Shown: in pieces, positions 48,391 through 55,406 of the stretch | Numbering within the stretch: the stretch's first letter is position 1 | Layout: each line of letters opens with the position of its first letter | DNA from: Longimicrobiales bacterium | Lineage (GTDB): Bacteria > Gemmatimonadota > Gemmatimonadetes > Longimicrobiales > Gaopeijiaceae | Length of the DNA stretch: 64,000 nt | Assembly: GCA_965219445.1 (NCBI GenBank) | Contig: CBDCNQ010000004.1 | Span: forward strand, 960,001 to 1,024,000 | Direction: 5' to 3' | Notes under the pieces: generated by a model | What the model saw: the letters and a program-made list of their open reading frames with translations, nothing else | What the model was told of the DNA's origin: nothing | The model's database searches: none | Position numbers and translations under genes: made by a program

Positions 48391-50746
48391 CTACGTCGGG
48401 GAATCAGTGGGAGACTCAGCTTCGGCCGTCACGATCGGTCGAGACTGTTCAAGTGTGGCCGCACGTACGCGCTGGGGGCTCCAGCGTCGTCGGGCGCTTT
48501 CGGGAATCGCATGAGCGGCGCCGCGTATCACACCATCTCTATGGAGTGCGGAGAAGCATTCGACCAGCTCGGGTTCCAGGGCGCCGCCCGACTCCGACTG
48601 CACGAACTCCAGCGCCCACTCCTCAGGCTTGGCTTTTCGGTAGGCGCGCTCGGCGGTGAGAGCGTCGAAGATGTCGACCACAGCGACTATCCGCGCGCCG
48701 ACGGGGATCTGCTCGCCTTTCAACCCATCTGGATAGCCATTTCCGTCCCAGCGCTCGTGATGATGCAGGACGCACATCTTAGCCGTTTCGCTGATGGGCG
48801 CCTCTTTGAGGATTCGGTATCCGAGGACCGTGTGCTGCTTCATGATCTCGAACTCTTTACAGGTCAGCTTGCGGGGCTTGAGAAATACGGAGTCGGGGAC
48901 GCCGACCTTACCGATGTCGTGAAGACTCGCGCCCATCCAGAGATCCTCGAGGAAGTCGTCCTCACGGCCGAGCTCGACGGCAAGTGCGCATGAATAGGTG
49001 GCCAGACGTTGGCAGTGCGTCTCCGTGCCCTGATCCCGCGCCTCGACCGCTGTGCTGATACTTGTCAGGATCCCCAGATAGGCTTCCTCCAAGCTGCGTG
49101 TGAGCGCCCGGTTGTGGAAGCCCAGATGGAGACCCGAGGCAACGGAGAGTAGGGTGTGCGTGTCCAGCGGGCCGAGGCTGCGGCTCCCGTGCACGTAGAG
49201 CACCCGGCGCCGCTCATCCTGGTCGACGACAATCGGCACGAAGGCCTCACTTCCCCCTGGCCCGACCACAGCTTCGCCGTTGTTCTTCGCCACGACTCGT
49301 CGAAGCTCGCTCCAGTCCTGTGGCGGAGCACCGATCCCGCCCACAACCTCCCAGAACTCACCGCCCTCCTGGAGGAGCAGCACCGAGCTGGCGTCCAGCG
49401 CACCACCCAGAGTCTCGAGCAGTGGCGTAAGGGTCTCAGCGAGTCGAGGCTCGTCGAACCGGACGTCCCGGAGTCTGGCGATTGCCTGGATGCTTCGGTC
49501 ACGGGCGAGGACGTCTACTCCGGAGACGTGAAGCCGATAGCCCATCGTCATTGGGAATATAAGCCCCCAGGCGAAGGCGGGGCCCGCAACGCCGAAGACC
49601 ATCCCGGCGGCAAACGGTAGCCAGAACAAAAGCAGCAAGCCCCCCCAACCCATCGCCCAGATCAGGAATCCTGTTCCGGGAGACCGCCTGAGGAACACAG
49701 TGGCGCCGGCGAGTGCGAGGACCCAGACCAGCAAGATCTCCAGAACCGTCGGTACGTCGCGTCGGATTCGTCCGTTGAGCAGCGTGGCAAGGTCGCTGGC
49801 GTCCACGAAGAAGCGGGGGATCGAGGCATGCATCGGAGTGGTGACCGTCTCGACTCCCGGACCGTTGGGGCCCACCAGCACGATGGCGTTCTCGAATAAC
49901 GGGCTGGCCCGGGCAGGCAGTTCGCTGCCGCGCATCAGGTTCTGCAGGGAGAAGGGCGGACGGGCGCGTCGATGGTCAATGTAAGACCCGCGCCCCACCT
50001 CGATTCGGTGCTCGCCAAGTTCGAGCACCCCACTCGCGAGTCGGACTTGATCAAAAGGCACGTCCAAGTGCACCCGGAGGGCTTCCACTGCGAGCGACCA
50101 GTAGGGTAGGCCTAGAACGTGTGACTGGGGCTGAGCGCGCCGGACGACGGAGTCAGGATCGAACATTGCCGAACGGACGCCCACTGCGGTCGCCGACTCA
50201 GTGAAGAGGGGCGGTGGAAGCAGGGCCTCCTGCACGGGGAAACGCCGTCGCCCCATTGCCTGACGGCTGGACCCACTTCACGTCGGCGGCCAACACGATG
50301 TCCTTATGCGCCGCCAGCAAACTGGCGAAAGCGGAATCCGCTGCCGGGTCACCGGTGTTCTCCGGCAGCATGACATCGAGCACGATCACTGACGCTCCGG
50401 CATCGCGGGCCCGCTGGATGAACTTCTGCAGCATCCCCCGCGGCACACCCCACTCGCTGGCTCCATCCGCTCCAGCTGACCCGCCTGTTCCTACGACCAG
50501 CAGGTTGTCGGGCAGCTCGCGCTCAAGGGCTCGTTGCCGGACGTCGAATGCCCAGCGGTCCAAACCGGCAGTCCACGCGGTGACCGGGAGGCGGTCGCCA
50601 CCCAGGATGGCAAGGGTCAGCACCGCAGCCAGGCCTCCCCCAGCGCTCACGGCGAAAAAACTGGATTTTCGGCGCACAGTGAGCCGCGACACGGCGGCGA
50701 GCAGCTTTTCGAGTAAACGACGCACGGCGTTCCTCAGCCTATACAT
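48391..50746 (-). CDS. CHASE2-TM-(GAF-like)-HD-GYP cyclic-dinucleotide phosphodiesterase; +1 frameshift at 50236-50239
   Basis: CHASE2 motifs (GASVIVLDV, DSAFA, DPDSVVRR), TM helices, HDIGK, HHERWDGNGYP and DIFDALT.ERAYR. Confidence 0.87.
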
Positions 50747-52079: not shown

Positions 52080-52095
52080 TGGCACACATCTGGCA
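52080..52095 (+). promoter_or_regulatory. Sigma54 (-24/-12) promoter upstream of the riboswitch
   Basis: TGGCACACATCTGGCA is GG-N10-GC. The predicted TSS is ~52106, about 30 nt before the aptamer. Confidence 0.62.
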
Positions 52096-52135
52096 GATAC
52101 CCTTCTGGTCGCATCGGGGCCGCCTGATGTCGATA

Positions 52136-52230
52136 GTGCTGCTCAGAGCAAAACCGCCGAAAGGCGGTGACGCAGAGCTACGGGGCCTAAGTGATCGTCT
52201 CAGATCACCCGGCCAGCCGGGCCGCCAGCC
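52136..52230 (+). ncRNA. GEMM-I (c-di-GMP-I family) riboswitch, A20 variant (cGAMP-type signature)
   Basis: P1 GCUG/CAGC (52138-41/52226-29); GCAAA; P2 ACCGCC-GAAA-GGCGGU; GACGCA; P3 with CCUAAG receptor and GUGAUC/GAUCAC hairpin; 3' AGCCGGGCCGCC. Confidence 0.9.
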
Positions 52231-52271
52231 AATCCTGAACTAGAAGGCAGGAGGAACTGGCGGCCCGTTTT
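52218..52271 (+). terminator. Riboswitch expression-platform terminator
   Basis: CGGGCCGCCAG (52218-28) pairs perfectly with CTGGCGGCCCG (52257-67), with inner TCCTG/CAGGA pairing, followed by TTTT. Confidence 0.75.
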
Positions 52272-52336
52272 GCTGGCCCCCTTCGGAGACCAAGAAGGAA
52301 GTCTCAAGGGCATTATCACCGACATCGGGTCATGAG

Positions 52337-52825
52337 ATGCAGAGGGAGAGAATTGGACGGAGCGGCTACTCGCTACTGGAGATGGTCGCCATACTCCTCG
52401 TCCTCGGGGGCTTCACGGGAGCGGCAGTCCCGAGGATGCGTGGCGCCTGGGAGCAGTTCGCAGTCGCGGGGGCCGCCGATCAGTTCATATCGGCGCATCA
52501 CAAGGCGCGCACTGCGGCGGTACGATTCGGCGCCGTGTCCGAACTTCATATCGACGCTTCCGCGGATCGGTTCTGGGTCCAGATCGACACGACGGCTTCC
52601 AGGTCCGGCGTCATGGATACCATAGGCGAGGTCGTCGACTTGAGTGAGAGCCGGGTGGACTTGAGGGCCACCAGGTCTCTGCTCTGCTTCGACCCGCGGG
52701 GACTCGTCGCCGCCGCAGCCGGATGTCCAACCACGGGATCTCTTGCTATCGGCTTCTCTCGCGGAAGCTCGTCGGACACGCTGAGTGCAACCGCGTCGGG
52801 GCTCCTGTTCAAGGCCTCTCAATGA
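52337..52825 (+). CDS. FimT/GspH-like minor pilin
   Basis: SG|YSLLE prepilin site; ARTAAV and FDPRG motifs. Confidence 0.82.
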   Translation: MQRERIGRSGYSLLEMVAILLVLGGFTGAAVPRMRGAWEQFAVAGAADQFISAHHKARTAAVRFGAVSELHIDASADRFWVQIDTTASRSGVMDTIGEVVDLSESRVDLRATRSLLCFDPRGLVAAAAGCPTTGSLAIGFSRGSSSDTLSATASGLLFKASQ

Positions 52826-53184
52826 GTACCCGCACGACGACGTCGGGGCCCGAGGCTGGTGTCTCCATCGTGGAGGTGCTGATCGCCTTGGTCATCTTCA
52901 CGATGGGAACGCTTGCGGCCGCCCAGCAGACGCTCGCCTCCCGGCAACAGGCCAGGGCCGGGGAGATCATCACCGAGGCCGCCGCAGCGGCGCAGTACCA
53001 GATGGAGACCCTGCGCTCGCTTCCTCTAGATGGTCTCGTTTCCGACTCGGACACGGTGTGGGGATTTCCGATCAGCTGGACGGTCTCGGGTACCGCCCCC
53101 AAGGTCATCGTCCTCGCCATAGAACGCCCTTCCGTTCTCAGCGGCACGACCGTGGACACGCTCGTAACCTACGCCGCATGGTAA
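52822..53184 (+). CDS. PilV-like minor pilin
   Basis: AG|VSIVEVLIAL; ATGA overlap with the preceding gene. Confidence 0.8.
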   Translation: MSTRTTTSGPEAGVSIVEVLIALVIFTMGTLAAAQQTLASRQQARAGEIITEAAAAAQYQMETLRSLPLDGLVSDSDTVWGFPISWTVSGTAPKVIVLAIERPSVLSGTTVDTLVTYAAW

Positions 53185-53191
53185 GGAACCA

Positions 53192-54055
53192 ATGAGCGCC
53201 CCTCGACCTCGTCGTGTGATCCCAGCGGGTGCTGGAGGATTCACATTGATGGAGATGCTGGTCACACTGGTCGTGGCCAGCCTGCTAGCGGCCGCGTCGT
53301 TCACGATCCTCGGCTCCCAGGTGGCCCTCTATACCGTGCAAAACGCCAAGCTGGGAACTCAGATAAGCCTACGTACAGGGGCCGGCATGCTGTCGTGGGC
53401 CATCCAGGAAGCGTCCGCTACAGGGGGCGACCTGACGACCCTCGGCACCAACAGCGTGACCATGAGGGCGGTCCACGCCAGCGGGATCATCTGCTCTACG
53501 AGCACCCAGTGGCTGGGCGTTCACGACGTATCGGGGCAGTTCGCCGCAAGTGACAGCGTGCTGACGTACTCCATTCAGAATGACAATTGGAACATCGTAG
53601 AAGTGGCGGACACCGACACGACGATATCCGGATTGGCCACAAAGACGCCAGACTGCTTCTGGGGAGACACGACCAGTGCGCCCAACCCCGAGGTCGCCGT
53701 CGACCTGGCGGGTGCACCGACAATCATCGACAGCCTCTTGGTGGGCTCGCCCATCCGCGCCTTCCACGTGGTCCAGTTCGGTCTCGAGGAAGTGAACGGG
53801 AGATATTGGCTCGTACAGAGAGTCTCGGGAACCGCCGCTCCGGAGAGGCTGGCCGGACCGCTCATGAGTCCCGCCAACGAGGGGTTGGTCTTCAGCTACT
53901 ACGACGCGACCGGCGCCCCGACCATCACGCCGTCGGAGGTCGCCACCATCGACATCCTCCTCAAGGCCGAAAGTATGGAGGACCTGTCCGCCTATGTGAG
54001 TTCGGGTACCCTCGCGGACACGCTCCGCCTCAGGGTGAACGTGCGCAACAACTAG
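53192..54055 (+). CDS. PilW-like minor pilin
   Basis: GG|FTLME; C-terminal FSYYD...VNVRN. Confidence 0.82.
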   Translation: MSAPRPRRVIPAGAGGFTLMEMLVTLVVASLLAAASFTILGSQVALYTVQNAKLGTQISLRTGAGMLSWAIQEASATGGDLTTLGTNSVTMRAVHASGIICSTSTQWLGVHDVSGQFAASDSVLTYSIQNDNWNIVEVADTDTTISGLATKTPDCFWGDTTSAPNPEVAVDLAGAPTIIDSLLVGSPIRAFHVVQFGLEEVNGRYWLVQRVSGTAAPERLAGPLMSPANEGLVFSYYDATGAPTITPSEVATIDILLKAESMEDLSAYVSSGTLADTLRLRVNVRNN

Positions 54056-54077
54056 CGTGTTCTGGAGAGTCGAGCAG

Positions 54078-54140
54078 ATGCCAAAACCAGTCACCACGAT
54101 GCCAAGATCGGCCACAGCAATGCCGAGACCCGGCACCACG
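54078..54140 (+). repeat. Three 21-bp ATG-initiated repeats
   Basis: Encode MPKPVTT/MPRSATA/MPRPGTT. Confidence 0.7.
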
Positions 54141-55406
54141 TGGATCCATGACAGAGCCTCGCGCAGACGGAGCGAGGGCTTCGCGCTGCCCGTCGTGATC
54201 TTCGCTCTGGTACTGCTCGGGGTGATTGGCAGCGCAGCGCTCCGGACCTCTCGCGACGAGCTCCTCTCGGCAAAGGCCGTGAACTCCTCCAGTCAGGCGT
54301 TCTACGCCGCTGAAGCCGGCATCCACAGCGCTCTTTCGAACTGGGACCAGCTGGCCATGGACACCTTGATGCCCCTGCCCGGGGATAGTCTCGTGGAATC
54401 GTGGATGACGATCGAAAACCGCTGTAGCTATCAGCTCGTATATCGCCGGATCGACGGTGGTGACGTGCCCGAGCAACTCTACTCCGTCGAGTCCATAGGT
54501 CGGAGCCCTGGCCTAAACAGGGGAAGGCGCCGGATCGGCGTCGTCGTAAGGAGCAGGATCGGCATCGGTGCCGCCCTCATGTTCGGAGGTGACGTGGCGC
54601 TCTCAGGCAACCCGACCATCCTAGGGGAGTGCCCGGATATCCACACCAACGGCGACCTGGATATCAGCGGGACCACGACGATAGCCACGGTATCTGGCAA
54701 TGTGACTGCCTCAGGCACGGCGTTTGTCGGGGGCACACTGCAGGACACGCTCGGAAACGCGGTCACTCCGACGTCCAGCGCACCCCAGCAGCCCGTCCCC
54801 GATCTCGATCCCACCGACTACTGCGGCGAAGCGGATTACATTTTCACCGGCACTCTCGCGACCGAGGTCGCCACGATGACCACCAGGGACCTCGCCCTCG
54901 GGACCTGGTGGGGTTGGAAATGGAGCGGCGGCACCTACACGACGGACAACGACAACGTCGCGTCCGGTGTCTATTGCATGGACAACGACGTCGAGATCTC
55001 CAACCAACTCGGCTCGCCCAGTACTCCCCTGGCCATCACGATCCTCACGACCAAGTCGGTAACCATTCCTGGGGATCCTTACATGGTCCCCGCCCACCCG
55101 GACAGCATTCTCATTGTGGCCGACGGGGACCTGAAGCTCAATGGGAGTCCGGCGAGCGGTGACCAGAACTACGAGGGGCTGGCCTACGCGGGCTCCCAAT
55201 GCGAAGTCTCCGGCACCCCGGTGATGTTCGGGCAACTGGTCTGCCGAAACGACCCCAATCCTGTCGGCAGTGAGGATTGGGTAGATGAAAACAAGGTCAG
55301 CGGTGACCTGAGGCTGACCTACAATTGTGGCGGAATACTCGGCGGGGGGGGGTCAGACCAATCAATGGACGAACGTGGAGCCACGTCTGGTAAGCCTGCG
55401 TCCTAA
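54078..55406 (+). CDS. PilX-like minor pilin (true stop may be 55393, depending on a G-tract)
   Basis: EG|FALPV (no Glu5) and AFYAAEAG motifs; beta-helix-like C-terminal domain. Confidence 0.82.
   Translation: MPKPVTTMPRSATAMPRPGTTWIHDRASRRRSEGFALPVVIFALVLLGVIGSAALRTSRDELLSAKAVNSSSQAFYAAEAGIHSALSNWDQLAMDTLMPLPGDSLVESWMTIENRCSYQLVYRRIDGGDVPEQLYSVESIGRSPGLNRGRRRIGVVVRSRIGIGAALMFGGDVALSGNPTILGECPDIHTNGDLDISGTTTIATVSGNVTASGTAFVGGTLQDTLGNAVTPTSSAPQQPVPDLDPTDYCGEADYIFTGTLATEVATMTTRDLALGTWWGWKWSGGTYTTDNDNVASGVYCMDNDVEISNQLGSPSTPLAITILTTKSVTIPGDPYMVPAHPDSILIVADGDLKLNGSPASGDQNYEGLAYAGSQCEVSGTPVMFGQLVCRNDPNPVGSEDWVDENKVSGDLRLTYNCGGILGGGGSDQSMDERGATSGKPAS

Follow-up and report, generated by a model that had tools for sequence, protein, structure and literature searches.

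The window, a 64-kb stretch of DNA, contains a GEMM-I riboswitch. It belongs to an A20/G48 subclass, probably responds to 3',3'-cGAMP (possibly not exclusively), and is predicted to be an ON switch for a cluster of minor-pilin-like genes. An A20 aptamer ahead of pilus-tip-like genes, in a genome with predicted cGAMP enzymes, suggests that these genes are likely switched on as cGAMP rises. Hypr-cGAMP signalling is characterized mainly in Geobacter, Myxococcus, and Bdellovibrio. The Gemmatimonadota origin proposed in an earlier, sequence-only reading of this DNA agrees with RecA, whose nearest named matches are in Gemmatimonadota and Longimicrobiales. The cGAMP assignment draws on writer and eraser signatures, a reader–writer association across genomes, the expression platform, and the pilM precedent (PMC9262584). 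Feature coordinates are collected in Table 1.

Table 1. Features of the riboswitch locus, in window coordinates.
Feature	Position	Strand	Basis
Sigma54-type -24/-12 motif, GG 52081-82 and GC 52093-94 (GG-N10-GC)	52080..52095	+	sequence; same-genus genome G007; rpoN
5' leader hairpin	52108..52134	+	folds; changes in G007 preserve pairing
GEMM-I aptamer, A20/G48 subclass	52137..52229	+	RF01051, 57.3 bits (gathering score 35); census; covariation
Anti-aptamer/terminator-like hairpin, arms 52218-28 and 52257-67, U4 52268-71	52218..52271	+	folds; subclass comparison
3' arm of predicted long-range helix, ends 7 nt before first start codon	52310..52329	+	MFE fold; G007
FimT/FimU (GspH)-like minor pilin, 162 aa	52337..52825	+	PF12019 E 8e-4, slightly under cut-off; prepilin motif
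PilV-like minor pilin, 120 aa	52822..53184	+	TIGR02523 29.1 bits versus GspI 17.8, both under cut-off
PilW-like minor pilin, 287 aa	53192..54055	+	N_methyl above cut-off; PilW from gene order only
PilX-like protein, long C-terminal domain	54057..55406	+	PilX_N E 6e-4, under cut-off

The Rfam search confirmed that the aptamer is complete, as had been claimed. The RF01051 match spans the full model (positions 1–87, E 1.5e-8) and is the sole Rfam match in the window; no other RF01051 match was found in the genome among the 150 of 190 candidates scored. P1 has 4 bp (52138-41/52226-29). Position numbers 14, 47, 48, and 93 follow the sequence-only reading. The G20 and C92 numbering is that of PMC6140456. 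Inspection of column 20 in the alignment upheld the claim of A20 with C92 retained, one of the marks of GEMM-Ib: A20 is base 52147, where the RF01051 consensus has G preceding GCAAA, and the other pocket bases are A47 (52174), G48 (52175), and C92 (52225). A47 separates the aptamer from the c-di-GMP-I-GGC variant (RF03167), whose consensus has G at this position. Geobacter sulfurreducens Gs1761 likewise has A at position 20 and the C92 equivalent (PMC6140456, PMC6274999), but its P2 begins with C15-G40 (PMC6274999) and it has A42 at the position equivalent to 48. The aptamer described here has G48 and a Vc2-type G21-C46 base rather than the Gs1761-type C-G, a pair reported to influence selectivity but not strictly defining. 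Base 52147 has no alternative letter in the contigs of four runs from four studies, a check that rests on assembled contigs rather than raw reads. Contigs of runs X1 (possibly the source) and X3 cover the stretch as one piece, and those of X3 and X10 carry G>A at 52224, within the hairpin. In 22 hand-picked subclass sequences, 97% of the cells of the P1-P2-P3 junction are paired and 13 of its 22 pairs change on both sides, a level reached by 0 of 500 shuffles.

The G at position 48 had been called atypical. The base is there, but it is a cross-phylum marker rather than a quirk: 116 of 122 G48 aptamers have A20. By this census, G48 defines a widespread, A20-linked GEMM-I subclass that the sequence-only reading had missed. 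The CUCAG junction is conserved in the subclass. A subclass-specific regulon was not seen, as lipoprotein-like ORFs lie downstream of 24/49 members and 41/91 other aptamers, and viral contigs gave no match, so phage carriage is not supported. Positions 17 and 48 are not discussed in PMC5888326. The G48 variant may already have been described in the literature.

The genome (G000) was searched for GGDEF proteins with the Hypr Asp-to-Ser/Thr change, and a candidate cGAMP synthase was found. The Hypr criteria are Ser/Thr at position 348, GGDE[F/Y], and a non-Arg cross-dimer residue, of which Y, S, A, and Q were shown to favour cGAMP (PMC6456294). The GAF-GGDEF protein G000:C2:459518-460681 (GGDEF domain, N-terminal half; best PDB match GacA, 6D9M) has Ser at the GacA Ser348 position with a GGDEF motif, and the Ser is retained in 118/120 homologues. 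Its cross-dimer residue, at the Tyr304 position, is Asp, which is non-Arg and lies outside the four named residues. It is thus a predicted Hypr-type cGAMP synthase that resembles the GacA pathway in placing a Ser/GGDEF enzyme in the same genome as the riboswitch (PMC6456294), and differs from GacA in its GAF-GGDEF architecture and the Asp. An FHA-GGDEF protein (G000:C5:325229-326173) was rejected as writer; it combines Ser with GGEEF, reported to be inactive (PMC6456294), and is predicted to be inactive. SMODS nucleotidyltransferases, one Pfam family and not all CD-NTases, were found in 0/5 genomes and were discarded as an alternative writer.

The candidate eraser is an HD-GYP protein (G000:C4:426585-428150) with an intact HD (HDIGK) and RSYQ aligned to RPYK of PmGH. 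Rxx(Q/N) is the signature of PmxA, the cGAMP-specific HD-GYP of Myxococcus xanthus, and the RxxQ here falls in the PmGH R314/K317 register (10.1101/600031). Unlike PmxA, the protein is cytoplasmic, has HHM in place of HHE, is embedded among trp genes, and is near-core in its order. Homologues occur in 82/101 relatives, far more commonly than the riboswitch, and RxxQ is present in all 30 loci read. It is predicted to be a PmxA-type cGAMP phosphodiesterase. Together with the Hypr-type synthase, it places signatures of writer, eraser, and reader in one genome. The CHASE2/HD-GYP protein neighbouring the aptamer was rejected as eraser, being canonical RxxR.

Writer and reader are also associated across genomes, in counts where kin are not independent. 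Among 401 genomes of the phylum, the Ser/Thr-GGDE pattern occurs in 30/60 genomes with the subclass and 22/341 others; by genus it occurs in 14/30 with and 9/117 without the subclass, and within one family in 27/42 subclass genomes and 17/124 others. Carriers not labelled Gemmatimonadota have an in-frame Hypr match in 23/31 cases (17 translated, 6 by eye). Of the 60 carriers, 17 lacked both the Ser/Thr and the Asn motif, and in 7/10 near-complete carriers surveyed in full no intact non-Asp GGDEF was found. Asn-type GGDEFs, present in 166/401 genomes and covering 13/30 carriers without Ser, were rejected as accounting for where the riboswitch occurs: 145 of the 166 are in one family, where they are therefore uninformative.

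A20 by itself does not fix the ligand. Protonation of the A lets A20 aptamers bind c-di-GMP (PMC6140456). The caveat that some bind both ligands holds for Vc2 G20A of Vibrio cholerae (53 nM for c-di-GMP, 120 nM for cGAMP) and Cbe 1-2 of Clostridium beijerinckii (30 nM versus 463 nM), both RF01051 aptamers with A20 (PMC6140456). It is possible, but rather unlikely, that the in-cell ligand is c-di-GMP, with the Hypr gene incidental and A20/G48 forming a pocket that has lower affinity or accepts both ligands, as would suit terminator control. Those affinities fit such a pocket, as do the G21-C22 base in 58/58 A20 aptamers of the relatives' census, canonical Asp GGDEFs in G000 as well as in each of the 10 carriers surveyed, and the canonical RxxR HD-GYP ~2 kb upstream of the aptamer. 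Hypr is also unassociated with the subclass among the 101 closest relatives (4/32 subclass genomes versus 10/69 others). The phylum-wide association argues for cGAMP instead, as do the RxxQ HD-GYP in 5/5 writer-less carriers examined and the many genomes in which G20 and A20 aptamers are co-resident on different platforms. The present aptamer also differs from the dual or c-di-GMP-preferring Vc2 G20A and Cbe 1-2 in having G48, the conserved CUCAG junction, and Hypr co-occurrence. Another dinucleotide such as c-di-AMP is very improbable as the subclass ligand: almost all these bacteria could make it (DAC domain in 99/101 relatives) and near-pocket changes are fixed (C15-U16-C17, G19, G48, and C90 in 50/50), but C92, the partner of G-beta of the ligand (PMC6140456), is kept in 58/58 A20 aptamers of the relatives' census, 5/5 genomes encode a PgpH-like c-di-AMP hydrolase domain, and the subclass follows Hypr rather than the near-universal DAC.

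The geometry of the expression platform agrees with the ON switch that had been proposed. The hairpin (11 bp, 28-nt loop) sequesters C92 and is mutually exclusive with the aptamer, and the same platform with at least five U occurs in 24/49 subclass members and 0/100 other aptamers. The cost of folding the aptamer is 2 kcal/mol at 52229 and 21 kcal/mol at 52272. These data support the prediction that one minor-pilin cluster is switched on at the level of transcription, under kinetic control. RNA from a sigma54-type promoter, with an inferred start near 52106, would leave the aptamer foldable until about 52250. Ligand, made by the GAF-GGDEF enzyme and removed by the RxxQ HD-GYP, would pair with A20 and C92 in this window of folding and lock P1, and polymerase would read through; without ligand the hairpin arms would pair and transcription would stop at the U run. 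The Geobacter metallireducens pilM GEMM-Ib riboswitch has the same fold and likewise turns on transcription of pilus genes, and its terminator sequesters the ligand-pairing C (PMC9262584; compared by description, not sequence). The present case differs in its phylum, its minor-pilin operon rather than pilMNOP, its longer loop, and its short U-tract.

The helix and UUUU of the claimed terminator are real, but the tract is weak (four U, CUUU in G007) and the hairpin was missed by a consensus terminator scan. The helix can also be extended 7 bp past the tract (52211-17/52272-78, 18 bp total), and 52123-52139, in the leader hairpin region, can alternatively pair with 52310-52329 in the MFE fold (z -5.9), a pairing retained in G007. 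These features would suit a real aptamer whose extended and long-range helices act on translation, on the stability of the RNA, or on access by Rho, or a partly decayed switch. We consider a non-termination output of this kind quite unlikely, since the subclass norm is the same hairpin with longer U-tracts; the direction would remain ON. The claimed sigma54 motif is present and is retained in G007 although the flanks diverge, and rpoN is in the genome. It occurs 17 times genome-wide versus 21–25 times in shuffles, so by itself it is not above chance and was dropped as independent evidence. Another pilin cluster has a second such motif nearby, but this falls within coding sequence and was also dropped.

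The four downstream ORFs match GspH/FimT, N_methyl/PilV, N_methyl, and PilX_N, mostly below curated cut-offs. The gene types would fit a type IVa fimU-pilV-pilW-pilX cluster (PMC13190605), with gene 1 matching GspH. The PilV-like gene starts in an ATGA overlap with its predecessor, and start context favours ATG 54078 for the PilX-like protein, one of whose 79 homologues is named PilX. The next gene is lemA; no linked pilY1 is present at the locus. The genome has at least six minor-pilin clusters, and the riboswitch precedes one of them. The operon is present without the riboswitch in genome G006. The proposed pilus-tip operon consists of four minor-pilin-like genes. No RNA data set was listed as covering it. 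The pilin link is local, with pilins downstream of just 2/149 aptamers.

Several observations run against the overall explanation: c-di-GMP binding by A20, the carriers without a synthase motif, the weak U-tract, the chance frequency of the sigma54 motif, the local pilin link, the Vc2-like P2 base, and the missing association in the closest relatives. The Asp cross-dimer residue, the HHM of the RxxQ enzyme and its far wider occurrence than the riboswitch, the G007 tract, the 52224 change, and riboswitch-less G006 also count against it.

A limited literature search found no paper linking Gemmatimonadota to a Hypr GGDEF, a cGAMP riboswitch, or a cGAMP HD-GYP. The sequence-only reading, which knew of no such description for this lineage, was overstated in part: a cGAMP ON switch for pilus genes is already known from pilM (PMC9262584). 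If the cGAMP assignment is correct, the three signatures and the phylum-wide association would extend Hypr-cGAMP signalling to Gemmatimonadota, and cGAMP would choose among several pilus-tip clusters. The second-shell bases that make an A20 aptamer selective are left unresolved in PMC6140456, and the A20/G48 coupling offers a concrete test of which they are. A doubtful but possible extension is that A20/G48 with CUCAG forms a distinct cGAMP-selective pocket, the mark of a cGAMP pathway present in Gemmatimonadota, Nitrospirota, and further phyla. In this order, the near-core RxxQ eraser and the roughly one-quarter of riboswitch carriers without a Hypr, Asn-type, or SMODS synthase would then point to an undiscovered cGAMP synthase, for which the eraser-bearing, writer-less carriers are a search set.

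A covariance-model search matched the Rfam family RF01051 ahead of the minor-pilin operon at 57.3 bits, and no other match was found in the source genome (G000) among the 150 of 190 candidates scored. The model alignment, including a check of column 20, bears out the aptamer of the sequence-only reading, with A at specificity position 20 (Vc2 numbering), C92 kept, and an atypical G48. The element is a genuine GEMM-I riboswitch of the A20/G48 subclass. Contigs from four runs, one of which (X1) may be the source, show no alternative letter at base 20, an agreement among contigs rather than raw reads.

Coordinates of the features (unprefixed positions, window; L, loci read out of genomes; C2 to C5, contigs; G006, a same-genus genome)
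Feature	Location	Remark
GEMM-I aptamer	52137-52229	
Pocket base A20	52147	by alignment
Pocket bases A47, G48, C92		by alignment
Hairpin	52218-28/52257-67	3' strand of aptamer; UUUU directly after
Long-range helix	52123-39/52310-29	predicted; stops 7 nt short of first ATG
7-nt direct repeat	52112-52118 and 52323-52329	
Segment with two alternative partners	52123-32	5' leader, or region preceding first start codon
Minor-pilin operon	52337-55406 (+)	four genes
Split CHASE2/HD-GYP gene	48391-50746 (-)	overlapping pair of ORFs (CHASE2 profile covered at 6-107 and 102-256, respectively); HD-GYP canonical RxxR
FHA-GGDEF	L007:1087-1986 (G000:C5)	Ser + GGEEF; amid Ser/Thr kinase-like genes
GGDEF-PilZ	L003 (G000:C5:861107-862240)	Asn/GGEEF
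RxxQ HD-GYP	L533:2586-4151 (-) = G000:C4:426585-428150	RSYQ vs PmGH RPYK
Paralogue of RxxQ HD-GYP	C3:307619-309208	HN in place of HD; RxxA
A20 + G48 on second scaffold	L193:1343-1419(-), L198:201-287(+)	P1 type usual for G20
Orthologous pilin operon	G006:C2:1477000-1484400	apparently part-duplicated in tandem; no upstream riboswitch

The hairpin formed by the 3' strand of the aptamer sequesters C92. Computed folding favours it over the aptamer by 21 kcal/mol after transcription compared to 2 kcal/mol at 52229, so control would be kinetic. The pairing and U tract of the terminator proposed earlier are both present, but the tract is short and the helix can be extended by 7 bp beyond it. The proposed upstream sigma54-type motif is conserved in the same-genus genome G007 and rpoN is present, but genome-wide the motif is no commoner than in shuffled sequence. 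The direct repeat makes a second conformational switch possible. The switch logic itself is already known from the pilM riboswitch of Geobacter metallireducens, which turns on transcription of pilus genes in response to cGAMP and in which the ligand-pairing C is likewise masked by a terminator (PMC9262584).

RF01051 matches occur in 51 of 101 relatives. Among 149 aptamers examined (of 150 listed and 191 matches), 58 have A20, 88 have G20, and three have C20 (L157, L165, and L171); G48 occurs in 50, each with A20. One P1 type is common to 49 A20 aptamers in 32 genomes, and 24 of these 49 have an anti-aptamer helix of at least 8 bp with five or more U within 8 nt, compared to 0 of 100 others. 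A G48 pattern scan of GTDB genomes with position 20 unconstrained yielded 126 matches from the 10 of 64 parts covered (~770 stretches estimated), and P2 is paired in 122 of them. Of these 122, A20 was found in 116 and G20 in 6; by record titles, the set includes 80 Gemmatimonadota and 18 Nitrospirota, every one A20, along with Deltaproteobacteria, Acidobacteriota, Eisenbacteria, and others. The 7-nt J1/2 is identical in 94 of the 122, and 22 members hand-picked for clear terminators show covariation in both aptamer and hairpin. Occurrence on a second scaffold suggests more than one origin of G48 after A20. Several genomes carry A20/G48 aptamers in tandem, and two switches (L145 and L162) precede genes called PilZ-like by eye.

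The predicted Hypr synthase was sought among 17 GGDEF matches in the genome. One GAF-GGDEF protein carries Ser with a GGDEF motif; in the N-terminal half of its GGDEF domain the best match is GacA, with Asp at the Tyr304 position. PMC6456294 defines Hypr by Ser348 and GGDE[F/Y]. This candidate writer occurs in 14/101 relatives, keeps Ser in 118/120 homologues, and has its nearest named homologues (57-60%) in Deltaproteobacteria and Nitrospirota. The FHA-GGDEF protein was discounted because Ser/GGEEF is reported there as inactive; it carries naturally a pair that the same text states is absent from natural enzymes. In a third enzyme, GGDEF-PilZ, the base-reading residue is Asn and the cross-dimer residue Phe.

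Eight HD_5 matches comprise six RxxR/K, one RxxA, and one RxxQ protein. In the RxxQ protein the HD is intact and HHM replaces HHE. An RxxQ-type motif is the PmxA signature (10.1101/600031), and by this signature the protein is a candidate PmxA-type cGAMP eraser. Homologues occur in 82/101 relatives, with RxxQ in all of the best 30 loci. The HD-GYP gene has a HEAT-repeat gene upstream and stands between trpB-like and trpA-like genes (named by eye). The genome thus holds all three putative pathway signatures (writer, eraser, and reader) together. SMODS domains were found in 0/5 genomes. A DAC (CdaA-like) domain is present in 99/101 relatives, which places c-di-AMP alongside c-di-GMP and probably cGAMP in this order; a PgpH-like domain in 5/5 genomes gives c-di-AMP its own likely eraser.

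Association of reader and writer was measured in 401 genomes of the phylum (completeness at least 90%), where the A20/G48 pattern occurs in 78 and the Ser/Thr-GGDE pattern in 52. The latter is present in 30 of the 60 carriers retained by eye for a P2 hairpin versus 22/341 others (odds ratio 14.5), unfiltered in 31/78 versus 21/323, by genus in 14/30 versus 9/117, and within family f4 in 27/42 versus 17/124; these counts ignore kinship, and the patterns miss variants. Among the 101 closest relatives the association is absent, with Hypr in 4/32 subclass genomes versus 10/69 others. In-frame matches were found in 23/31 named carriers not labelled Gemmatimonadota (one A20 locus and repeat genomes excluded) and 16/50 Gemmatimonadota (50 of 80 loci), 17 and 9 of them confirmed by translation and the remainder by eye. 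An Asn pattern, near-universal in f4 (145/166 genomes), covers 13/30 Ser-less carriers, leaving 17/60 carriers with neither pattern. A full GGDEF survey of ten carriers without Ser (93/97 matches read, the other four among the weakest) identified an Asn/GGDEF/Tyr enzyme in three; in the other seven the non-Asp domains were only degenerate (Ser/GGAEF in G066, Asn/GGDDF in G065). RxxQ HD-GYP proteins are present in 5/5 writer-less carriers checked. Unpublished genomes (G080, G061, G351, and G233) enter into some of the counts, and no conclusion depends on them.

A20 alone does not fix the ligand. In PMC6140456, binding by Vc2 G20A is at 53 nM for c-di-GMP and 120 nM for cGAMP, Cbe 1-2 favours c-di-GMP, and the selectivity of Gs1761 varies with conditions. 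The main rival, that the aptamer reads c-di-GMP, is judged unlikely. We consider it reasonably probable that the riboswitch is a cGAMP-responsive ON switch. Our search, with the 2015 and 2017 primary papers outside it, found no paper joining Gemmatimona* with Hypr GGDEF, a cGAMP riboswitch, or HD-GYP and cGAMP.

The Gemmatimonadota placement was upheld by RecA, whose nearest named matches are Gemmatimonadota (87%) and Longimicrobiales (82%). The four downstream ORFs match FimT/GspH, PilV, prepilin, and PilX_N, most scoring below cut-off. The genome has at least six such clusters plus PilB/PilT-family ATPases, and only the present cluster has the riboswitch. Among 11 genomes of the genus, the operon of G007 is preceded by an orthologous aptamer (A19, A20, A48, with CUUU as its tract), and that of G006 lacks an upstream Rfam match. 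Also in the window, the split CHASE2/HD-GYP gene is an apparent frameshift or assembly error. Across the relatives, genes 3' of the aptamers are mainly lipoprotein-like or other, with pilins at 2/149. The finding draws its value less from the pilin link than from the subclass, its Hypr association, and the writer-less carriers.
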